64,000 nucleotides of DNA. Origin: an uncultured Nitrospiraceae bacterium (GTDB taxonomy: Bacteria > Nitrospirota > Thermodesulfovibrionia > Thermodesulfovibrionales > Dissulfurispiraceae). Position 1 is the stretch's first letter. Every line of letters starts with the position of its first letter. The notes under the pieces were generated by a model that had not been told where the DNA came from, did not search any database, and saw nothing but the letters and a program-made list of their open reading frames with translations. Where the stretch lies: the NCBI GenBank assembly GCA_963727805.1, contig CAVSHF010000003.1, positions 2,176,001 through 2,240,000 on the forward strand, written 5' to 3'. Both the position numbers and the translations under genes were made by a program. Of the stretch, positions 16,824 through 56,875 are shown piece by piece.

Positions 16824-18035
16824 TCAGATTAATTCTATCCCTTTGATTCGCGCCACCTGTTGCACATCCTTGTCGCCGCGTCCCGAAAGATTGACAATAA
16901 TAATCTTGTCCTTTGGCAACTCGGGAGCGAACTTCGTAACCTCTGCAAGTGCGTGGGCTGATTCGAGAGCGGGGATGATTCCTTCAGTCCGTGAAAGGAG
17001 TTCAAAAGCTGCGAGTGCCTCATCATCGACGGCGTAAGTATATTGTATGCGGCCTGAATCCTTCAAAAATGCATGCTGCGGCCCCACGGATGCGTAATCG
17101 AGACCCGCTGATACCGAATGCGTTTCGAGTACATTGCCATCATCATCCTGGAGCAGGTAAGTCCTGCATCCCTGGAGGACTCCGATAGAACCTCCTGCAA
17201 ACCGAGCTGCATGTTCTCCGGTTTCGATGCCTTTGCCCCCCGCCTCGACGCCGATCATTTTTATGTCATCGGAAAGAAATTCGTTGAACAGACCCATGGC
17301 GTTGCTCCCGCCACCCACACAAGCGATCAGGTAGTCGGGCAGTCTACCCTCGGCCTTGAGTATCTGCTTTTTCGCCTCTCTGCCGATCACAGCCTGAAAG
17401 TCCCTCACTACTGCTGGAAAGGGATGCGGCCCGAAAACTGTACCGAGCACGTAATGGGTCGTTCTCACATTAGCGGTCCAATCGCGCATGGATTCATTGA
17501 TAGCGTCTTTGAGGGTTTGCGAGCCAATAGACACCTCGTTCACTTTTGCTCCGAGAAGCTTCATCCTGAAAACATTCAGGGCCTGCCGCTTCATGTCAAC
17601 CGAACCCATGTAAATCTCGCACTCGAGATCGACAAGGGCGGCTCCCGTGGCCGTTGCAACACCGTGCTGACCGGCACCGGTTTCAGCAATAATCCGTTTT
17701 TTACCCATCTTTTTTGCTAGTAGGGCTTGGCCAATAGCGTTGTTGATCTTGTGTGCGCCGGTATGGGCAAGGTCTTCTCTTTTTAGGTAGATCTTTGCGC
17801 CCCCGAGATGCTCCGTAAGCCTCTTCGCAAAATAGAGTGGCGTCGGTCTGCCAATATACGTTCTCTGCAGAAGTTCGAGTTCGTCCTGAAAGGCTTTGTT
17901 ATGCTTCGCTTTTGCGTATTCCGCTTCAAGCTCCATAAGAGCAGGCATGAGGGTCTCAGGGGCGAACCTTCCCCCGTAGTTTCCGAAATAGCCTCTTTGA
18001 TCGGGTAATTTTTTTATGGTCTTACTGTCGCTCAT
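16824..18035 (-). CDS. trpB: Tryptophan synthase beta subunit (type 1)
   Basis: [28 protein letters not shown]. Confidence 0.97.
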
Positions 18036-18157
18036 AAAGTCAATTATTATATCATATTTCCTTGTAATTCAGTCCGCTATACGCAGTTTGCCCATGCTCT
18101 TATCATGCCCTTTTATGCTAAAATAGTTTTTACGAACTTATACCCCCTGGAGGAACT

Positions 18158-19513
18158 ATGTCGGAGACCAAGATTATCCTTTCTGAAAAAGAGATCCCAT
18201 CACAATGGTACAACATCATTGCGGATATGCCGAACCCTCCCAAGCCGCCTCTTCATCCCGCCACGAGGCAGCCGGTAGGCCCTGATGATTTAAGCGCTAT
18301 ATTCCCCATGGCCCTTATCGAGCAGGAGGTTTCAGGGCAGAGGTGGATCGATATCCCTGAAGAGGTGCGTGAGATTTATACACTCTGGAGACCCTCTCCG
18401 CTCTTCCGGGCCAAAAGGCTGGAGGCTTTCCTGAAAACACCGGCAAGAATATATTACAAATACGAAGGGGTAAGCCCTGCAGGGAGTCACAAGCCTAACA
18501 CAGCCATCCCGCAGGCTTATTATAACAAAAAGGCCGGCATCAGAAGGATCGCTACTGAGACGGGTGCCGGACAGTGGGGCTCGTCGATGGCCCTTGCAGG
18601 GACCATGTTCGGGCTCGATGTGACCGTTTATATGGTCAAAGTAAGTTATAACCAGAAGCCCTATCGTAGAATCGCTATGGAAACTTGGGGTGCTACAGTT
18701 CACGCCAGCCCATCGAACATAACCAACTCAGGAAGGAAGGCGCTTGAGGACTACCCTGATAGTCCGGGTAGTCTCGGATTAGCAATATCTGAAGCCGTAG
18801 AAGATGCGGCGACCCACTCTGACACAAATTATGCCCTCGGGTCAGTGCTCAACCATGTCGTCCTTCACCAGACAATCATTGGACAGGAGGTCAGGAAACA
18901 GCTTGCTTCAATAGGTGATTATCCCGATATCATCATCGGCTGCTGCGGAGGGGGGTCCAACTTCGGAGGCATCGCCTTCCCTTTCCTTGCTGATAAGATC
19001 CATGGGAAAGAGCTCAGGGCTATCGCCGTCGAGCCGAGTTCCTGCCCGACCCTGACAAAGGGAGACTTTAGGTACGACTTCGGAGATACAGCCGGGCTGA
19101 CACCGTTTCTGATGATGTACACCCTCGGCCACGATTTTATGCCCCCTGGTATCCACGCCGGCGGTCTCCGTTATCACGGCGATTCACCACTCGTCTCTCA
19201 ACTCTATAAAGACGGAATAATCGAGGCCAGAGCCTATCGCCAGTTGACCGTATTTGAAGCGGCAATGACCTTTGCAAAGACCGAGGCAATCATTCCTGCC
19301 CCGGAGAGTGCCCACGCCATCAGGGCCGCAATTGATGAGGCGCTCTTGTGCAAGGAAGAAGGCAAGGAGAAATGCATCCTATTTAACCTCAGCGGGCACG
19401 GCTATCTCGACCTCGCTGCTTACGACGATTATCTTAACGGGAAACTTGTAGATTTCGAGTATCCCGATGAGTCAATAAGGGAATCGCTGGCAAAGCTGCC
19501 TGTGATAAAGTAA
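18158..19513 (+). CDS. trpB2: TrpB2 (type 2 tryptophan synthase beta-like PLP enzyme)
   Basis: [36 protein letters not shown]. Confidence 0.93.
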
Positions 19514-38610: not shown

Positions 38611-38682
38611 AGTGCTATAATTATAGCTTAAAATATATATACTATCAGCAAGTTTCTTCATCCCGGATTGAGAGGAGGATAT

Positions 38683-39681
38683 ATGCCCGAGTTGAGAAAA
38701 GATCCCATATCGGGGCGATGGGTAATCATATCAGTGGAACGTGGCAAACGACCGACGGATTTTGTTTCACCTTCTCAGAAACGCAAGGCAGGCGGCTTCT
38801 GTCCTTTTTGCCCCGGTAACGAACATACGACAACTCCTGAGATTATCGCCTTCAGGCCCGCTAGCACAGCTCCCAATTCGCCGGGCTGGACCCTTAGAGC
38901 CGTCCCGAACAAATTCCCTGCCCTTCAGATCCACGGAGACCTACATAAGATGGGAGAGGGGGTTTTCGACAAGATGAACGGCATCGGTGCCCATGAGGTC
39001 ATTATTGAAACCCCCGAGCACCAACTCTCTCTGGCGACCATGCCCCAGAGGGCGGTCGAGGACGTACTCTGGGCTTATTATTTTAGACTAATGGATCTCA
39101 AGAAGGACTTCCGCTTCAAGTATGTCCTCATATTCAAGAACGAGGGTGAGGTTGCAGGCTCGTCTCTTGAACATAGCCACAGCCAGCTCATCGCACTGCC
39201 GATCATCCCGAAGAGCGTCAAGGAAGAGATGGACACATCTAAGCAATATTATGACAGCAAAGAGCGCTGTCTCCTCTGCGATATTGTCAGTCAGGAACTC
39301 GATTCAGGAAGAAGGGTCGTCTACGAAAACGATAAATACGCTGCTCTTGCACCTTTTGCACCTCGGGAGCCGTTCGAAACTTGGATATTGCCAAAGCAGC
39401 ATGAATCCAGCTTTGGCCCGCCCGATAAAAGTTTTTCGGGTCTTGCCGATATACTGCAAAAGGTCCTCAAGCAACTCGACAAGGTTCTCGATACCCCTCC
39501 TTACAATTTCATCCTCCACACCTCGGCCTTCAAAGATGAGGTCAACGACTATTACCACTGGCACATCGAGATTGTTCCGAAGCTGACAAAAACAGCGGGC
39601 TTCGAGTGGGGATCAGGGTTTTATATCAATCCGACACCACCTGAAGAAGCTGCCAAATTTATGAGAGAAGCAAAGATCTAA
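38683..39681 (+). CDS. galT: GalT-family nucleotidylyltransferase (galactose-1-P uridylyltransferase / ADP-glucose phosphorylase-like)
   Basis: MPELRKDP, CPFCPGNE, PNKFPAL, HSHSQ (HxHxQ), HWHIE; GGAGG RBS. Confidence 0.85.
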   Translation: MPELRKDPISGRWVIISVERGKRPTDFVSPSQKRKAGGFCPFCPGNEHTTTPEIIAFRPASTAPNSPGWTLRAVPNKFPALQIHGDLHKMGEGVFDKMNGIGAHEVIIETPEHQLSLATMPQRAVEDVLWAYYFRLMDLKKDFRFKYVLIFKNEGEVAGSSLEHSHSQLIALPIIPKSVKEEMDTSKQYYDSKERCLLCDIVSQELDSGRRVVYENDKYAALAPFAPREPFETWILPKQHESSFGPPDKSFSGLADILQKVLKQLDKVLDTPPYNFILHTSAFKDEVNDYYHWHIEIVPKLTKTAGFEWGSGFYINPTPPEEAAKFMREAKI

Positions 39682-39685
39682 ACTC

Positions 39686-41182
39686 ATGAGAATTGCCCTC
39701 ATATCATCAGAGGCAGTGCCATTCTCAAAAACAGGAGGGCTGGCTGATGTTGCCGGAACTCTTTTCAGGGAATACAACAGAATGGGCATCGATGCCTCTC
39801 TCTTTCTTCCTCTTTACAAAGTGACCTCTGAGCATTTTCGTGGTTCTCTCGTCGATACGGGCACGGAGATCGATATCCCTGTCGGGAAGATTGCAAAGAA
39901 ATGCCGAGTCTATACTGCAGGGGAACAACGGCGGGGTAATCAAGGACGCGGCACTGTTTATTTCGTCTCGAATGACGAATATTTTGGCAGAGACGAAATG
40001 TATTGCGACGCCATGGGAGATTATCCAGATAATGACTCCCGTTTCGTCTTTTTCTGTAAAAGCGTTCTTGAAATATGCCGGAAATTCAATCTGGTATTCG
40101 ATGTCCTCCACTGCAATGACTGGCAGACAGCCCTTATCCCCCTTTATCTCAGAACACTTTACTGGAGCGGAACGTTATTTAAAAAAACCAGGACCGTCCT
40201 CACTATCCACAATCTCGGCTTTCAGGGGTTATTCCCCGCCTCCACTCTTGAACTAACAGGGCTCGGCTGGGATATCTTCAATCCCGAAGGTATCGAATTT
40301 TACGGGAAGGTAAATTTTCTCAAGGCAGGCATCATCTCAGCCGATATCCTTACCACGGTCAGCCCCACTTATGCAAAGGAGATACTCACTCCAGAAAAAG
40401 GCTTCGGTCTTGATGGCATGCTCCGCAAAAGGGTGGATTCCCTCTTCGGGGTGCTTAACGGTATCGATTACACCGAGTGGGATCCCGCCGATGATGACTT
40501 AATTCCCGCAACTTATTCTAAAACCAACCTTTCGGGGAAAGAGAAATGCAAAAAAGAATTGATGTCGCGGTGTGCCTTTAAAGGATCTCAGGAGACACCA
40601 CTGCTTTGTTTTGTAGGTAGGCTCTCTGCCCAGAAAGGGATTGACCTCATCACCAATTCCGCAGATCAATTAATGAAAAGCAGTGTGAACCTCTTTGTTC
40701 TTGGAAAAGGTGACAGTCGTTATGAAGCGATCCTCAAGGATTATGGCCGTAGATACCCGGGCCGCGTATATATCGGGATCGAATTCGATGAGTCCCTAGC
40801 ACACCTTGCCTACGCCGGGTCCGATATCTTCCTCATGCCCTCGGTTTATGAGCCCTGCGGATTGGGCCAGATGATCGCTATGCGTTACGGGACGGTGCCG
40901 GTAGCATATGATACCGGAGGCCTTACTGATACGATCGTCAGTCCGGGGGGGCATACTGAAAAATTCTTCTGCGAGAAGGTGTACGGTACAATAAAAGAGA
41001 CGGGGTTCCTTTTCGGTAGACACTCACCAGAGTTCTTCCTTGGGGAAATCAGAAAGGCCTTGTGTATTTATTACAATACGAATATCTGGCGAAAACTCAT
41101 CAAAAACGCCATGGGAAGAGACTTCTCCTGGAAAAAGTCCGCTGCAATGTATCTTCAATTGTATAACAAGTTGCATGATTGA
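39686..41182 (+). CDS. glgA: Glycogen synthase
   Basis: KTGGLADV, HCNDWQ, TIHNL, QKG, EPCGLGQM. Confidence 0.95.
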   Translation: MRIALISSEAVPFSKTGGLADVAGTLFREYNRMGIDASLFLPLYKVTSEHFRGSLVDTGTEIDIPVGKIAKKCRVYTAGEQRRGNQGRGTVYFVSNDEYFGRDEMYCDAMGDYPDNDSRFVFFCKSVLEICRKFNLVFDVLHCNDWQTALIPLYLRTLYWSGTLFKKTRTVLTIHNLGFQGLFPASTLELTGLGWDIFNPEGIEFYGKVNFLKAGIISADILTTVSPTYAKEILTPEKGFGLDGMLRKRVDSLFGVLNGIDYTEWDPADDDLIPATYSKTNLSGKEKCKKELMSRCAFKGSQETPLLCFVGRLSAQKGIDLITNSADQLMKSSVNLFVLGKGDSRYEAILKDYGRRYPGRVYIGIEFDESLAHLAYAGSDIFLMPSVYEPCGLGQMIAMRYGTVPVAYDTGGLTDTIVSPGGHTEKFFCEKVYGTIKETGFLFGRHSPEFFLGEIRKALCIYYNTNIWRKLIKNAMGRDFSWKKSAAMYLQLYNKLHD

Positions 41183-50407: not shown

Positions 50408-50665
50408 TTATTTTGCGACAGCGTTCTGTTCCCTAATCTTTTTCATAAGCCTTTCGTACTTCTCGTGGCCCACACATTCCCGTGCCGCAGGGCACCATTC
50501 GATGCATGACATTACCATGTCCCTTGTGATGGTCTTGCCGCATCCCTTACACGTCATGTCGGGTTCATCCGACCAGATCTCGTTCCGGTGATGGCAGAAG
50601 ACACAGACGAGGTCGTCCGGAGAAGGACTCGTTATCTCTTTGCTTCCTGGGCAGCTCTCTTTCAT
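50408..50665 (-). CDS. Small 8-Cys metal-binding protein (85 aa)
   Basis: CPG..CxxC..EIWSDE..CxxC..CxxWC..C; -10-like TAAACT 6 nt upstream of ATG. Confidence 0.8.
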   Translation of the reverse strand: MKESCPGSKEITSPSPDDLVCVFCHHRNEIWSDEPDMTCKGCGKTITRDMVMSCIEWCPAARECVGHEKYERLMKKIREQNAVAK

Positions 50666-50723
50666 AATTTTAGTTTACCACTGTCAGACCGGACTTACTA
50701 TGATTTGGATCATATTTGCGGGG

Positions 50724-51308
50724 TTAGCCCGACTTCCATCTTCTGAAGAGTTCGTGCTCGATACCGAAGCTGTCGAGTATCTTGCCTACAATGAAATCGA
50801 TGACCCCTTCGAAGTCCTTCGGCCCGTGATAAAAGGCAGGCACCGGAGGGGCGATGCGGACGCCGAGTCTCGCAAGCTTGAGCATATTCTCGAGGTGAAT
50901 TGCACTGAAGGGCATCTCGCGCGGGGAGAGAAGGAGCGGCCTTCCTTCCTTTAGGGTCACATCAGCGGCTCTTTCGATAAGGTTGTTAGCATAGCCGTGT
51001 GCAATCCCCGAAAGTGTCTTCATGGTACACGGCACCACCAGCATCCCGTTTGTCATGAAGGAGCCGCTCGCAACAGGCGCTTCCATTTTTTTATCCTCAT
51101 GGAAAAAAAGCCTGTCGGTCGCAAAGTGATTTCTGATGGCTGTTTCCGTATCTTCAGCCCAATCAATTCCAGTCTCTTCCAGAATGATGGGGAAGGTATT
51201 TTTGGATATAACAAGATGGACTTCTGCTGTTTTGATCAACTCAGCGAGAACACGGATGCCGAAGATCGGACCGCTTGCCCCGGTAATAGCCAAGACATAT
51301 CGTTTCAT
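50724..51308 (-). CDS. ubiX: Flavin prenyltransferase
   Basis: AITGASG, ASGS, VPCTMKTL, RAADVTLKE, PREMP, PAFYH. Confidence 0.93.
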   Translation of the reverse strand: MKRYVLAITGASGPIFGIRVLAELIKTAEVHLVISKNTFPIILEETGIDWAEDTETAIRNHFATDRLFFHEDKKMEAPVASGSFMTNGMLVVPCTMKTLSGIAHGYANNLIERAADVTLKEGRPLLLSPREMPFSAIHLENMLKLARLGVRIAPPVPAFYHGPKDFEGVIDFIVGKILDSFGIEHELFRRWKSG

Positions 51309-51369
51309 ATTTCTATTATAGCCGAATTCTTCGATACTACGGCTACTCCCCAGCATCGGCTCGTTGATG

Positions 51370-52641
51370 TTATTGATACATTTTCGACCCGATCTTTGAC
51401 GTCAAATCCCCGAGCATGTTCGTATAGCTCCCGAGTTCGTTGTCATACCACCCGTAAACAACCGCCTGCGTGATCGGAATTTTCACGATGGGGCCCACTC
51501 CTTCGGGCGCTGTTCCCTTTGCATAATGCCTGCCGATATCGAGAGACACGACCGCCGTCCTCGTATGGGTCTCATTGCCCTCGATTATCACCGCAGGGCC
51601 GAAGCAGCCGATGATATCCGAGGAGACATTCTGCTCTTCCGTATATTTGATATATCCCTTTATTTCCCTCTCTGCGGCGTCAAGGTATATCTTGTTGATA
51701 AGGGCGCGGTTGATGAGCGGATTGTCCTCTTCGTCATACATGGCGATAACCAATATTATCAACGATCCGGTCGCTATCGGCACCCTGACCGACTGGGCGA
51801 TAAAGCCAATCCTGTTCATCTCGGGCAGAACAAGTGCAAGGGTTTTAGCGGCGCCGGTGCTCGTGAGGATGATATTGTTCATGATGCTTCTGTTTTTTCT
51901 GAGGTCTTTCGCTCCTTCCTTTGGGAGCCGGTCAAGGACTTGCTGTGATCCGGTAGAGGCGTGGACCGTAGCCATAGAGAGGCTCAAAATTTTGCCTGGA
52001 CCGAAATAATCGAGGAGTGGCTTCACGATATAGGCAAGGCAGGTAGTAGTGCATGAGGCTGCTGAGATGATATGATGCCGTCCGTGATCATAGTCATTGT
52101 CGTTGATGCCTGCGATGAGCGTCACGGCATCGTCGGGAAACGGAACACCTTTCTCTCTGATCTTAAACGGGGCCGAGACGATCACCTTTTCAGCGCCTGC
52201 CTCAAGATGGCCGCGGGCCGAGCCGCTCCGAGCGTCGGGCGTTGCCGTGGGGTCGGTGTATTTCCCCGTTGCATCAACAACAAGTTTGACGCCATGCTTC
52301 CTCCACGGTATCTCTTTGGGATTGCGCGTCTCCCTCAAAATAGTCACTCGTACGCCATCGATCACCATCGTCCCCTTTTCTTCATCGAGATGCGTGATCA
52401 GCCGTTCTGCACGATAACCATACAGATAGGTATGGAGCATTCCATAGGAGGAATCCTTCTCAATATACAAAGCAATGTCTTCGAGCTTCGTCCCGACCTT
52501 GCGTCCTATATTCACAACGATCTCTGAAAATTGTTTCCGCCCTATGTGATGCCAAAGCGTGAGCTTGCCGATTCTTCCAAGACCATTGATACCGAGGACG
52601 GGCTTTTTCTCAAAAAGCATCGTCACAACTTTCTCCGCCAT
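51370..52641 (-). CDS. Atypical long GAPDH-family dehydrogenase (423 aa)
   Basis: GINGLGRIG, ASCTTT catalytic Cys, TVHAST, STGAAK, RVP, WYDNE; several insertions. Confidence 0.85.
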   Translation of the reverse strand: MAEKVVTMLFEKKPVLGINGLGRIGKLTLWHHIGRKQFSEIVVNIGRKVGTKLEDIALYIEKDSSYGMLHTYLYGYRAERLITHLDEEKGTMVIDGVRVTILRETRNPKEIPWRKHGVKLVVDATGKYTDPTATPDARSGSARGHLEAGAEKVIVSAPFKIREKGVPFPDDAVTLIAGINDNDYDHGRHHIISAASCTTTCLAYIVKPLLDYFGPGKILSLSMATVHASTGSQQVLDRLPKEGAKDLRKNRSIMNNIILTSTGAAKTLALVLPEMNRIGFIAQSVRVPIATGSLIILVIAMYDEEDNPLINRALINKIYLDAAEREIKGYIKYTEEQNVSSDIIGCFGPAVIIEGNETHTRTAVVSLDIGRHYAKGTAPEGVGPIVKIPITQAVVYGWYDNELGSYTNMLGDLTSKIGSKMYQ

Positions 52642-52693: not shown

Positions 52694-55600
52694 TCACGTC
52701 AACGGCATGACCTCTTTTGCCTTGTGCATCCCAAGGTAGACTGACCCATTCCTTCCGTCGATGCTGAGGAAATCACCCGCCTTTATCGTCTTGCGGTCCA
52801 GCCTGCATTTCTTCTCGTGCTCAAGAACGACAAGCTTGTTACATCCTACAACGCAGGTCTTTCCGAGCCTGTTGGCGATGATGGCGGCATGCGAGGTCGA
52901 GCCTCCACGCGCAGTGAGCAGCCCATCGGCAGCCGATATTTGCCTTATGTCATCAGGCACCGTATCGGATCGAAGGAGAATCACCGGTGTTGACGGGTCC
53001 TTTCCCTTGAATGTACGTATATCCTCAAGGTCGAAGGCAACCTTTCCACTTAATGCTCCGCCCCCCACCCCTATTCCGTTCGAAAGATATCCGGCCGAAA
53101 GTTCCGGTGAAGGGATGAATGCCATGAACGCCTCTCCACGCGTAATGGCCATGTCACGGGCCTGAAGAATATGAAGATTTTCTGGGTCCCCCCCTTCGAA
53201 GGTGAATTCAATTTCCTGAGCACCCCAGCCCTGCTCGTAAATGAGATCTTTCATTATCCTAAGGAGGTGATAATGGATGGCCGGAAACAGGTCTTCCAGT
53301 GAATAATCATTAGCCCTCTCCTCCATGCGTTTCTGCTCGTTGGATATGGGCAGTGTCTTCACCAGACCAGCTACGATATCTTCTCCTTGCGCACCCGTCA
53401 TAAAGTCACCCCACAACATGACCCTGTCACCGGGCTCACGGGGATTCCGCGTAAAGAGTACCCCCGTGCCTGCCCCAGTGTCAAGATTGCCGTAAATCAT
53501 TTCCTGTACGATAACGGCGGTCCCCCAGTTTTCGGACAGACTGAGTATGTCACGATAGTCCTTTGCCTTCGCTGACATCCAAGAACTGAAGACCAGATCA
53601 ATTGCCCCGTGAAGCTGCTTTATAGGGTCATCCGAGACCTCTATGCCCGCATCTGCCACTATTTTTTTATAGGCGAGAGCAACTCCTTTCATCTGGTCGG
53701 GACTAAACTCAATCTTAAGTCCGACCCGGTATTTCTTTTTGTATGAATCGATGACAGCGTCGAAGGCATCTCGCTCCATACCAAAAGACATACCCCAGCT
53801 CTGGAGAAAACGACGGTAGCAGTCCCAGGCGAACCAGCCCTTCCTCTTTTGCCTGATCAGCCCCTCGACAATGCTCTCATTTATCCCGACATTGAGCAGG
53901 GAATCCATCATCCCCGGCATCGAGATCGCACCGCCGCTCCTCACCGAAACAAGAAGAGGGTTATCGGGATTGCCGAAGAGTTTACCACTCCTCTCCTCAA
54001 GATGGCGCAGTTCTGCTTCAATACACTTGTTGAGATGTTCCGCTGCATAGCTGAAGCGACCGATAGCCTCGCGACAGCGAAATACCTCGGTAGTGATGAT
54101 GAAACCTGGTGGGACCTTAACCCCAAGGGCGGCGAGCTTAGCAAGATTGTATCCCTTATTGCCAAGATGTATCCGGTCGCTTGTAGCACTGTTAGGACTG
54201 TGGATATCCGACAGTGCTCTTTTCTGATCATAGCTCATGAGCAGGTCGAGGTTACTCATATCGAGTCCGCCCCCCTGCTCGAAAAGGGTCTTCAGGATCC
54301 TACTGATAAAGACATCGAGCTGCTGAAGACTTAAAGAAGAAGCAACGGTTTCTCGCAGGAACTGTTCTGCGATTTTATTGATGAATTCGAACTCGCTATG
54401 TCCCTGTGCAGCCTCGCCGTACCTGGACAGCATATTGCTAACTCCTATCTGGGGAATGATGACCTTCAGGGTGCCTTTGTGAATACCGCTGCAATAGGTG
54501 TTGACGATATCCTGCACCGCATCAGCAAACCCCCGGAATATATCAATGTACTGCGAGAAGGAAAATCTTTTTACCTCAAGTGAGCCCGACAAGAGTTCGA
54601 GGGTGTTTTCGAGTCGGTTCGATGAGATTCCGTCGAGTCTGAGGGCTCTGAAGAAAAGGTTCGCATACTTTTCGATCTCGACAAGAGTCGCCCGTGTTAT
54701 ATAAGTCAGGTTGATCGAATTGATCAACTCCTCGAAATAGATATTAGCGAGATTTTCTAGCCTATAGGTCATCGAGAGGGCATTGAATTTCTTTTCAATA
54801 TACCTGCCGTACATAGAAGGGATACCTGCGGCGATATGCCGTTTGCGAGCGATGTCCTCGATTGCCTCAAACTTCTCCGGCGCGAGAATGATGTCCTTGA
54901 GTTGCTCAAGGTAGTCAAGGACAGCCGAAATCCTCTGCTGAGGCCCTCCCTGTTCGAGAACGGCGATGAGCGCCTCAGCGGATGGAAGCCCCATACCGGC
55001 GGATTGTTTCAATTGCTCCCCTATGTCCTGCGAAGTGAGCCTGTATTTCGCATAGAGCATCTGGTAAAACCTGATAGCAAGCCAGGCGCGTCTCTTTTCA
55101 TTTGGGCTAACATCCAAATCTTTAATCGATGCGATAATTTCGGCTTCTGAGTAGCCGAGAAGGTCGGTAACACCGGTGATTGCTTTCCAGTTGACAAAGG
55201 TTGTGAAAATCAGATGGAGGTCGTCGACAAAGGGTCCCGATTCGCTTATCCGGCCATGGATATCTTCGGGCAGAAAATGGGCGAGCGGCCTTTTATCCTT
55301 TGTGAGCCAGAACCTCATAACCTCCTCGGCAAAGTCGACGATAACCGAACTGCTTTCTATGTGACTATGTTTACGGAGAAAACGGATGAGCGGGTCGGCT
55401 GTGCGGGTTGCATCATCGAGGGCAGTTGAAACCTCACGCAGTTCGCCCTCCGCATTGATGACGTTAAAATAGGCTGGAAACACCTTGGCGAGCTGTTTGA
55501 TGATATGGTAGACAGGCTTGATGTCGCTGTTCAAGAGTTTCGTGATGTCCTTCTGAAAGAGGTCGGTGTCGACTATGTTCACTCCTGCCAGCGTAAGGTT

Positions 55601-56875
55601 GATCATAAGTGCCGATATGAGCACTTTCGACCACTTGGGATTCATAGCGATTAGATCGAGCCAGACACGGATATTTTTCAGATGTGCCTTGTTTGATACC
55701 AATTGCCATTCATCGGTAATCCCTTTGACGTTTGGATACTGGAACCCGAAAAAGATGATCTGACGGCCGAACCATTCGACGAAAGCGCTCTCTCCCGAAT
55801 TATATATTTCACATCCTATGAGCTGAATACTGTGCAGAGTTATAGCCGGATATGCCCTAAAGGCTTCTTTAAGAGCTTTTATCGGCGTAGCCAGAATCGC
55901 CTCCATCCGTGGCATCTGTGGCCGCCCGACGGATCTGATAAAAGCTGCGAGGGTTCGGCCCATCTCTCGAATTGAAGACTCATGAATATCTATAAGTCCT
56001 TCTGCTTTCAAGATGTCCATAAGATAAGTGGTTTTGAGCCTGAAGTCTTTCAGATCGTCTCCCGTACCGGGTAGCATGCCGATAACATCTTCATAATAAG
56101 TAGTTATCTGCGTGAAAGAAGGCAGCTTAAGCATTTCCTCAAGCGCTGAGTAACTGTCTTCTACTCCTGAACCACCGATCCCCTCAAGATGCTTTTTCAA
56201 TCCTGTCAGGTTTCCATGTGCGACGGGAAAGAACAACTCATTGAGTTTATTTCTCTCTTTTACAGTTAAAGAAACGTCTGTGACGTCCTTTAAGCAGTCC
56301 GCGGGGTCTTCCTGTTTTAACCAGTAAGCGTAAGTTTCCGAAAGATATCTGAAATAGAGAGAGTTGAATGGACGAGCATCGAATCCCTCGGATCGCCTGT
56401 CGAGTATAAGCCGGCCTGCCTTTTTCAGCTGATGGGGATTTGAAATCACAGGGAAAAACATCTCTTGCGGCAGTTGCCTCAAAGCATCGCTACATTTCCG
56501 CACAGCAGGATCATATTCTTCGAGCTTCTGCTTGCCGTCCATGATGATCTTTTCGAAATAAACGAGGAGACCGTCAAGGGCGGCTGATGCCGTCTTTTGC
56601 CCAGAGGCTTTAACGGCTTCGAGGAAAATATCGATGATGGTCTGAATCGCCTCGATTCCCCGTTCATGGTGGTCGTGGAGCGAAAAGTTCTTCAGGGCAT
56701 ATGCGCGGAGTTCCTTCAGCAGAATAGGCCAGTTCCTAGTCTCTTGTTGCAGTTCATGAAACAGGGGAGTGGTGCTGCCCAGAACCCCTGGATACTCGCT
56801 CACAACCTCCTGCAAGATTGAGTAATCTGGTGCGGGCGGTACTTTGATTCCTGAGTCTATTTTTGGCGGATTCAT
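52694..56875 (-). CDS. PPDK-like dikinase with large N-terminal domain, lacking the C-terminal PEP/pyruvate-binding barrel (1393 aa)
   Basis: GNKG (~aa 905), VSVRSG, SMPGMMD, QGEDIVAG, EIEF, LQAR, then swivel GGSTSHAA (His ~1329); protein ends about 64 aa later. Confidence 0.88.
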   Translation of the reverse strand: MNPPKIDSGIKVPPAPDYSILQEVVSEYPGVLGSTTPLFHELQQETRNWPILLKELRAYALKNFSLHDHHERGIEAIQTIIDIFLEAVKASGQKTASAALDGLLVYFEKIIMDGKQKLEEYDPAVRKCSDALRQLPQEMFFPVISNPHQLKKAGRLILDRRSEGFDARPFNSLYFRYLSETYAYWLKQEDPADCLKDVTDVSLTVKERNKLNELFFPVAHGNLTGLKKHLEGIGGSGVEDSYSALEEMLKLPSFTQITTYYEDVIGMLPGTGDDLKDFRLKTTYLMDILKAEGLIDIHESSIREMGRTLAAFIRSVGRPQMPRMEAILATPIKALKEAFRAYPAITLHSIQLIGCEIYNSGESAFVEWFGRQIIFFGFQYPNVKGITDEWQLVSNKAHLKNIRVWLDLIAMNPKWSKVLISALMINLTLAGVNIVDTDLFQKDITKLLNSDIKPVYHIIKQLAKVFPAYFNVINAEGELREVSTALDDATRTADPLIRFLRKHSHIESSSVIVDFAEEVMRFWLTKDKRPLAHFLPEDIHGRISESGPFVDDLHLIFTTFVNWKAITGVTDLLGYSEAEIIASIKDLDVSPNEKRRAWLAIRFYQMLYAKYRLTSQDIGEQLKQSAGMGLPSAEALIAVLEQGGPQQRISAVLDYLEQLKDIILAPEKFEAIEDIARKRHIAAGIPSMYGRYIEKKFNALSMTYRLENLANIYFEELINSINLTYITRATLVEIEKYANLFFRALRLDGISSNRLENTLELLSGSLEVKRFSFSQYIDIFRGFADAVQDIVNTYCSGIHKGTLKVIIPQIGVSNMLSRYGEAAQGHSEFEFINKIAEQFLRETVASSLSLQQLDVFISRILKTLFEQGGGLDMSNLDLLMSYDQKRALSDIHSPNSATSDRIHLGNKGYNLAKLAALGVKVPPGFIITTEVFRCREAIGRFSYAAEHLNKCIEAELRHLEERSGKLFGNPDNPLLVSVRSGGAISMPGMMDSLLNVGINESIVEGLIRQKRKGWFAWDCYRRFLQSWGMSFGMERDAFDAVIDSYKKKYRVGLKIEFSPDQMKGVALAYKKIVADAGIEVSDDPIKQLHGAIDLVFSSWMSAKAKDYRDILSLSENWGTAVIVQEMIYGNLDTGAGTGVLFTRNPREPGDRVMLWGDFMTGAQGEDIVAGLVKTLPISNEQKRMEERANDYSLEDLFPAIHYHLLRIMKDLIYEQGWGAQEIEFTFEGGDPENLHILQARDMAITRGEAFMAFIPSPELSAGYLSNGIGVGGGALSGKVAFDLEDIRTFKGKDPSTPVILLRSDTVPDDIRQISAADGLLTARGGSTSHAAIIANRLGKTCVVGCNKLVVLEHEKKCRLDRKTIKAGDFLSIDGRNGSVYLGMHKAKEVMPLT

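Follow-up and report, generated by a model that had tools for sequence, protein, structure and literature searches.

A barrel-less relative of pyruvate, orthophosphate dikinase co-inherited with a distinct glyceraldehyde-3-phosphate dehydrogenase: a candidate 3-phosphoglycerate dikinase of anaerobic bacteria

Introduction

Pyruvate, orthophosphate dikinase (PPDK; EC 2.7.9.1; TIGR01828; PDB 1kbl, 1dik, 5jvn and 1vbg), glucan, water dikinase (GWD) and rifampin phosphotransferase (RPH) work by a common principle, that of the swivelling histidine. In PPDK, an ATP-grasp domain with an extra subdomain is followed by a swivel domain with a Thr-Ser-His motif and by a C-terminal barrel for phosphoenolpyruvate (PEP) or pyruvate. 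In GWD1 (EC 2.7.9.4; PDB 9HA9 and 9QVI), the acceptor domain is large and helical and precedes the catalytic module, in the order acceptor-His-ATP (PMC13553574). Furthermore, RPH, PigC/RedH, HpeHI, CreHI and PpsAB pass the phosphate from the swivel histidine to an acceptor other than pyruvate, which sits on an exchanged domain, and the RPH-type enzymes combine an ATP-grasp domain like that of PEP synthase (PEPS) with a central substrate domain (PMC12167813). There is also a short barrel-less "PPDK", PRK05878 (NF004531), whose 534-position model has the ATP-grasp and histidine domains and no room for a barrel. In this work we analysed a stretch of 64,000 nucleotides (the window: positions 2,176,001 to 2,240,000 of contig CAVSHF010000003.1, assembly GCA_963727805.1) from an uncultured Nitrospiraceae bacterium, in which a gene at 52694-56875 on the minus strand encodes a dikinase that shares, by homology, the same principle. 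Unlike PPDK, this protein has no C-terminal barrel, has 890 additional N-terminal residues and is co-inherited with a glyceraldehyde-3-phosphate dehydrogenase (GAPDH).

The reaction that we predict for this pair is the one carried out by phosphoglycerate kinase (PGK) together with an NADP-dependent gluconeogenic GAPDH of the GapB type, a system that also shows a division of labour between two GAPDHs (PMC12663938 and PMC4518329). According to the same sources, when an NAD form is also present the NADP-GAPDH works mainly in gluconeogenesis. GapB differs in relying on an ordinary PGK, which takes ATP to ADP, and the dikinase has no sequence link to PGK. With a probability of about one half, we propose that the dikinase is a 3-phosphoglycerate dikinase, which would make 1,3-bisphosphoglycerate (1,3-BPG) for a GAPDH using NADPH and thus bypass PGK.

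Results

The gene is a single, intact open frame for 1,393 amino acids, assigned from the reading frame and from Pfam, NCBIfam, PDB and homologue searches to a barrel-less, PPDK-derived dikinase of what we call the type-1 subfamily. Its PPDK-type ATP-grasp domain (residues 900-1243; 53147-54178, minus strand) retains K907, R979, D1166, E1221, E1223, Q1238 and R1240, and its phospho-histidine swivel domain (residues ~1260-1382; 52730-53098, minus strand) contains T1327-S1328-H1329, with the His codon at 52889-52891; the ATP-grasp and phospho-His motifs listed in the first-pass annotation are all present in the frame. In the PDB search, residues 899-1388 aligned to residues 13-513 of the PPDK 1kbl (E 5e-81), in the same domain order and with the PPDK-type extra subdomain in the ATP-grasp, and the protein ends at the point where the PPDK barrel would begin. 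Among 70 aligned members, the catalytic positions given by this alignment are kept in nearly every sequence (K907 in 70, R979 in 69, D1166 in 66, E1221 in 68, E1223 in 69, Q1238 in 69, R1240 in 66, T1327 in 66 and H1329 in 69); we take the PPDK residues matching K907, R979, D1166, E1221, E1223, Q1238, R1240 and H1329 to have the catalytic roles usually given to them. The extra subdomain sets PPDK apart from GWD (PMC13553574), and its presence here favours a first step that uses orthophosphate (Pi) and releases pyrophosphate (PPi).

Pfam detected PPDK_N (E 1.7e-29, best stretch 947-1175) and PEP-utilizers mobile (1297-1377) only, and did not find PEP-utilizers_C (PF02896, the PEP/pyruvate barrel), just as the first-pass annotation had expected. 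Against the NCBIfam models, the protein reached 391.8 bits to TIGR01828, below the cut-off of 843.45; the second-best family score, 304.8 bits to PRK05878, is under the cut-off of 456, and that model lacks an N-terminal acceptor region. The PEP synthase models gave 63-75 bits and the PTS enzyme I models 14-18 bits, both short of their cut-offs and with the barrel absent. Models of RPH-type and other small-molecule dikinases gave 12-38 bits, within the shared ATP-grasp and His stretches only, and the RPH-type central substrate domain was not found between ATP-grasp and swivel by family models, PDB search or profile comparison. GWD1 differs in domain order, which in the dikinase is acceptor-ATP-His, and the dikinase has neither significant sequence similarity to it nor a match to its CBM45-like or His-domain models. 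The dikinase departs from PPDK, GWD and RPH, in each case on a defining feature.

The absence of the barrel is a property of the whole family. With the N-terminal 900 residues as query, 450 of 8,000 scored candidates proved to be relatives. Of the top 120 homologues, mostly of 1,370-1,420 aa, 118 have PPDK_N, and the barrel family is listed for none. A search of 50%-identity representatives gave 505 matches, and in 42 of the 46 full-length distant representatives the His motif was matched and the protein ended 42-80 residues beyond it, so that a truncation of a barrel-bearing enzyme does not account for the architecture. At least 584 matches were confirmed among 600 pattern hits in GTDB. The nearest named homologues belong to Dissulfurispiraceae and other Thermodesulfovibrionales, and named members occur in Nitrospirota, Desulfobacterota (Desulfobulbus, Electrothrix, Syntrophobacteraceae, Thermodesulfobacterium), Thiotrichaceae/Thiomargarita, Bacteroidales, Cloacimonadota and Fermentibacteria. 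No family match was found in viral contigs or plasmids, and no fusion among proteins of 1,697-4,845 aa in the 7,998 scored, which is weak evidence. Two members (P0153 and P0163) carry an N-terminal hemerythrin domain; in P0153 a Tyr replaces the phospho-histidine, and P0163 has no recognisable His domain. Members are labelled "pyruvate, orthophosphate dikinase" in databases, and in the literature searched, mostly outside subscription journals, we found no paper that treats them. This is a real, uncharacterised family that is mis-annotated as PPDK.

The same genome has an intact PPDK (1397.5 bits to TIGR01828), which holds its only barrel. A short stand-alone barrel was found in none of the five genomes examined, one of which (G165) has the dikinase and no barrel whatsoever. 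Together with the family-wide lack of the domain, these results uphold the first-pass view that the protein is not a PPDK.

A second, divergent subfamily, type-2, comprises longer proteins (~1,460 aa), in which a beta-rich domain is added at the N-terminus, and is present in 17 of 151 Nitrospirota genomes. The genome studied here has such a paralogue of 1,463 aa and 28% identity (L001:8494-12885, minus strand; G000 C3 ~1788500-1792900), whose conserved beta-rich domain of ~130 aa has no Pfam match; a HAD hydrolase gene directly follows it and an AAA ATPase/vWA pair lies upstream. The candidate identity of this beta domain with the GWD immunoglobulin-like (Ig) domain was rejected (0.3% probability).

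The N-terminal region (residues 1-890; 54206-56875, minus strand) is the putative acceptor-binding and scaffold part of the protein. It has no Pfam match at E 0.1, residues 1-900 have no NCBIfam family match, and the best profile match to the PDB was no lower than E 0.08. The ESM Atlas gave no usable match for residues 1-890, and for residues 370-760 two matches under 0.9 that are apparently the dikinase family itself. Internal repeats were looked for in residues 1-890 and none was found, and comparison with the PPDK barrel, two PEPS/RPH-like proteins, two PGKs and the GAPDH of the same genome gave probabilities of 0.1-4%; the value for the barrel is 0.1%, and by sequence comparison a permuted barrel in this region is improbable. 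Hydrophobic periodicity of the helical type (100 degrees) prevails in most windows of the region (92% in residues 1-380, 62% in 380-530, 82% in 530-660 and 77% in 660-890); the corresponding values for the two alpha/beta domains are 59% and 54%. This indirectly backs the earlier description of the region as apparently helical; it is predicted to be mostly so.

Conservation in this region peaks at residues 401-500 and 651-700, as high as in the catalytic domains. The first conserved patch (residues 390-523; 55307-55708, minus strand) contains H398, D436, Q441, R480, D487, D494, R501, K502 and H505 and is common to both subfamilies; the second (residues 673-697; 54785-54859, minus strand) contains E673, K678, R679, H680, S687 and E694. 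In the N-terminal region, 33 positions reach 90% identity or more in each subfamily (55 type-1 and 15 type-2 rows), and 16 of them are Asp, Glu, Lys, Arg or His, compared with a background of 26% (binomial p 0.005). Such invariant charged residues are what would be expected of an acceptor site, and we infer that they form an active site for an anionic acceptor.

The partner gene, 52 bases downstream of the dikinase (51370-52641, minus strand), encodes a "long" class I GAPDH of 423 aa. It has catalytic C197 and H227 and intact phosphate-site residues, and no equivalent of Asp32. In 51 of 51 long GAPDH sequences S196, C197, T198, H227, T230, R248, T262, R286, N401 and Y406 are kept, and since all catalytic and phosphate-site residues are conserved, the substrate is likely glyceraldehyde 3-phosphate (G3P) or 1,3-BPG. 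The protein scores 320.2 bits to TIGR01534, under the cut-off of 367.2, and 122 bits to models of erythrose-4-phosphate (E4P) dehydrogenase; it stands on a long branch and has several insertions. Type-2 dikinases have a distinct partner GAPDH of 335 aa, which is above the same cut-off with 396 bits. In a quick tree of 36 sequences, the long, type-2 and ordinary GAPDHs each fall on one side of a branch (support 100, 99 and 90).

Asp32 is absent from both partner clades, and positions 187/188 are changed: residue 187 is Arg in 38 of 51 long GAPDHs and in the five type-2 partners seen, while ordinary GAPDHs retain Asn-Asp. Loss of Asp32 together with altered 187/188 goes with a preference for NADP in GAPDH; our literature search for this rule returned nothing. 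In the PDB, the type-2 partner matches 3dbv and 1dbv best, two entries that we take to be NADP-shifted GAPDH mutants. Both partner clades are therefore likely to use NADP(H), judging from these residues.

The type-1 dikinase and the long GAPDH are inherited together. In 354 genomes, 60 had both, one the dikinase only, three the GAPDH only and 290 neither; the two subfamilies, and long and ordinary GAPDHs, were told apart by clear E-value gaps, and no p-value is given because kin are not independent. Among 151 Nitrospirota genomes the figures were 12 with both, none with the dikinase only, two with the GAPDH only and 137 with neither, and the genes were adjacent in all 12. Among 161 Desulfobacterota genomes, 43 had both (adjacent in 35), one had each gene alone and 116 had neither, one of the two singles being a 160-aa fragment and the other a GAPDH with an internal stop. 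In the gammaproteobacterial order of genome G155 (42 genomes), five had both, none a single gene and 37 neither. The pairing persists where the genes lie apart, as in 8 of the 43 Desulfobacterota genomes. In addition, the type-2 partner GAPDH was found in 12 Nitrospirota genomes, all of them type-2 carriers, and was adjacent in 5 of the 14 loci fetched.

Among 80 fetched dikinase loci, whose flanks were often short, 52 had a GAPDH gene, with the long form downstream in 17, the ordinary form upstream in 36 and both in one locus. Dikinase, long GAPDH, ordinary GAPDH, pgk and tpi come together in several gene orders, the cassette lying in or beside gap-pgk-tpi. All five genomes reached through such loci had the long GAPDH, in two of them directly upstream of pgk and apart from the dikinase. 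PGK was present in the ten genomes tested, and the ordinary GAPDH was kept too; in the genome studied here there is an ordinary gap-pgk pair.

Several observations on these loci may be added. In Electrothrix and Desulfobulbus elongatus (L219, L220; G153, G151) the long GAPDH is directly upstream of pgk and apart from the dikinase, and in many other Desulfobulbales loci an ordinary GAPDH precedes the dikinase, the partners appearing swapped between loci. One single-contig genome has the long GAPDH-pgk pair twice with identical scores (G241:C1:505473-507924 and 1777503-1779954). In two genomes, both of one Nitrospirota genus, in which no dikinase was detected, the long GAPDH lies near contig ends (L202:7894-9102 and L203:5536-6783) and the loop after the conserved Thr-Gly differs. 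In the window, a UbiX prenyltransferase gene begins 13 bases after the GAPDH stop and is followed by an 85-aa, Cys-rich, zinc-ribbon-like reading frame (50408-51356, minus strand); these neighbours are not conserved at related loci. In RNA data, 5-9% of words were recovered in 13 runs, four of which had short pieces over both genes, none listed as bridging them, and a promoter scan was uninformative (6 sites, 8.2 expected).

Elsewhere in the genome there are matches to dsrA and acetyl-CoA synthase, a second, divergent gene of the PGK family (G000:C5:656723-658027; 273.6 bits, compared with 540 for the main PGK) and two RPH-like, PEP-synthase-like proteins of 870-880 aa with PPDK_N and no barrel match (G000:C5:612372-614990 and C5:974682-977321). 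By eye, the window also has a GalT-like uridylyltransferase gene directly upstream of glycogen synthase (38668-41182, plus strand), 11 kb from the dikinase, and, in a trp cluster (16824-19513, minus strand), a pair of neighbouring genes for tryptophan synthase beta-type proteins of 403 and 451 aa.

Discussion

Among the acceptors suggested in the first-pass annotation, the genomic data favour one at the GAPDH step, either 3-phosphoglycerate or GAPDH itself, over glucan. The dikinase is tied most tightly to a complete, likely NADP-using GAPDH, and a shared metabolite is the simplest link between them. In the mechanism that we propose, ATP and Pi would give the enzyme phosphorylated at H1329, AMP and PPi, as in PPDK; the transfer from ATP to His is assigned by homology. 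The His domain would then swing to a basic pocket formed in the N-terminal patches by R480, R501, K502, H505, K678, R679 and H680, with D436 and D487, where 3-phosphoglycerate would bind and its carboxyl group be phosphorylated; docking at these patches is what their conservation suggests. A phospho-His that is able to make PEP should also be able to make an acyl phosphate, which is of lower energy. Overall, 3-phosphoglycerate, ATP and Pi would yield 1,3-BPG, AMP and PPi, and 1,3-BPG with NADPH would yield G3P. The partner GAPDH, perhaps docked on the variable helical region 1-380, might take over the 1,3-BPG, which would thus be shielded from PGK, so that a futile cycle is avoided. Because PGK would drain free 1,3-BPG, a dedicated hand-over would account for the strictness of the pairing as well as for the size of the helical region. 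More tentatively than the reaction itself, we suggest that the family is a new kind of enzyme, a "3-phosphoglycerate, phosphate dikinase", whose acceptor fold would be new and which would bind its own NADP-GAPDH and pass 1,3-BPG to it by channelling. No dikinase for the PGK/GAPDH step was found in the literature that we searched.

The usual direction would be gluconeogenic, as two phosphoanhydride bonds would be spent and the step would become less unfavourable: by textbook values, its standard free energy is about +19 kJ/mol with PGK and about +4 kJ/mol by the dikinase route, or about -15 kJ/mol with PPi hydrolysis. Thermodynamics would also allow the reverse, in which ATP would be formed from AMP, PPi and 1,3-BPG as glycogen is broken down, and we favour gluconeogenesis over it by roughly seven to three. 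For comparison, a value of +19.6 kJ/mol is given for the PPDK reaction (PMC8100219). A membrane pyrophosphatase was found in only one of five genomes, soluble pyrophosphatases not having been searched, which indicates no general link to PPi-driven pumping.

Several results weigh against a 3-phosphoglycerate dikinase. The N-terminal region has no similarity to PGK (best probability 4%), 890 residues are a large region for a three-carbon acceptor, and PGK is always retained, so that a bypass requires channelling or regulation. Kinship inflates the co-occurrence counts, as 10 of the 12 Nitrospirota positives belong to one genus and all 12 type-2 pairs to one family; the type-2 partner is absent from 5 of the 17 type-2 genomes, and three type-2 loci adjoin HAD hydrolases instead. 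In two genomes of one Nitrospirota genus (G056 and G098), which are 99% complete but in 120-150 contigs, the long GAPDH was detected and a dikinase was not. In Desulfobulbales, the dikinase adjoins an ordinary GAPDH of the Asp32 type and the long one may adjoin pgk. Mirror trees of 25 loci gave r 0.79 with the long GAPDH and 0.86 with the linked ordinary GAPDH, that is, no co-evolution signal special to the dikinase and the long GAPDH. Finally, the hemerythrin fusions, one of which (P0153) has Tyr at the place of the phospho-histidine, would suit a regulatory role.

The alternative that survives best, although we hold it unlikely, is that the protein is a phosphotransferase acting on a protein, or a regulator: the helical region would bind the partner GAPDH and the His domain would phosphorylate it, directly or by relay through H505 or H680, and flux would thereby be switched between the NAD and NADP GAPDHs by ATP/AMP. 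The co-inheritance with one specific protein in each subfamily, the very large helical region, the histidines conserved outside the swivel (H398, H505 and H680) and the fact that PGK is never lost would all be accommodated, and the hemerythrin fusions suggest sensing. However, a small invariant cluster of Arg, Lys, His and Asp kept across 28% identity, when the partner GAPDHs are very different, fits a metabolite site better. Besides the lack of extra co-evolution with the long GAPDH, those characterised ATP-grasp/His dikinases that PMC12167813 and PMC13553574 name act on small molecules or glucan.

Slightly less probable still is a two-enzyme unit for reduction of another phospho-acid, for instance 4-phosphoerythronate or a sugar acid (or for oxidation of the aldehyde), in which the dikinase would make an acyl phosphate that the GAPDH-like partner reduces. 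A separate substrate would end the futile-cycle problem with PGK, and the sub-threshold score of the long GAPDH (320/367), its long branch and insertions, and the HAD hydrolases beside three type-2 loci are consistent with it. Against such a substrate, the G3P- and phosphate-binding positions are all invariant in the long GAPDH, E4P dehydrogenase models score far lower (122 vs 320 bits), the type-2 partner exceeds the GAPDH cut-off (396) and the cassette lies repeatedly within gap-pgk-tpi operons.

A glucan (glycogen) dikinase acting like plant GWD, with a helical acceptor domain, appears quite improbable. A glycogen-synthase-like gene does lie near 29 of the 80 dikinase loci and a phosphorylase gene near five, and GWD is barrel-less too, with an all-helical central domain (PMC13553574). 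By eye, the stretch from R480 to H505 also resembles, and aligns in register with, a motif that we presume to be characteristic of GWD. For comparison, 118 loci with this motif were fetched, with a match to the solved GWD central domain (9ha9, E 4e-84); 46 of them had a full window around the motif and entered the profile, and 77 shorter windows the in-register alignment. The profile comparison with the 46 central domains gave ~1% probability, the in-register alignment E 0.14, and reciprocal HMM searches were no better than reversed controls except for one hit of E 0.003 outside the motif, so that sequence profiles do not support the link. The CBM45-like Ig and GWD His-domain models (PF23166 and PF22973) gave no match on the dikinase; these models detect real GWD-like proteins in one scan, and the control of another gave no match. 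Bacterial-looking GWD genes have glucan-enzyme neighbours, whereas the dikinase family tracks GAPDH. As an observation apart, 12 of the fetched loci (L086, L088, L089, L100, L107, L110, L126, L133, L144, L153, L157 and L162) carry GWD1-like genes that are full-length and free of introns, on metagenome contigs that are gene-dense and look bacterial; in most, a conserved barrel-like reading frame follows and, by eye, glucan-enzyme-like frames flank the gene.

A truncated or split PPDK using a barrel in trans, which the PPDK-like C-terminal 490 residues and the database labels might suggest, is largely refuted by the constant architecture of the family, by the sole barrel of the genome lying in an intact PPDK, by the lack of stand-alone barrels, by the barrel-free G165 and by the 0.1% probability for a barrel in residues 1-890.

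Even if the acceptor were another one, the N-terminal region would be a new acceptor module for swivel-histidine dikinases, and the mis-annotation of family members as PPDK distorts metabolic reconstructions. In sugar synthesis from pyruvate, the energetic obstacle is the PGK/GAPDH step. If the dikinase does act on 3-phosphoglycerate, a swivelling-histidine engine would make an acyl phosphate in central metabolism, and engineers would gain a tool to pull carbon-fixation pathways. A route from ATP to AMP would then explain how gluconeogenesis proceeds in energy-poor sulfate reducers, cable bacteria, syntrophs and fermenters, or such anaerobes would recover ATP from their own AMP and pyrophosphate. 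Hundreds of low-energy anaerobes of several phyla would thus have an AMP- and PPi-linked alternative to PGK, at a step usually deemed universal.

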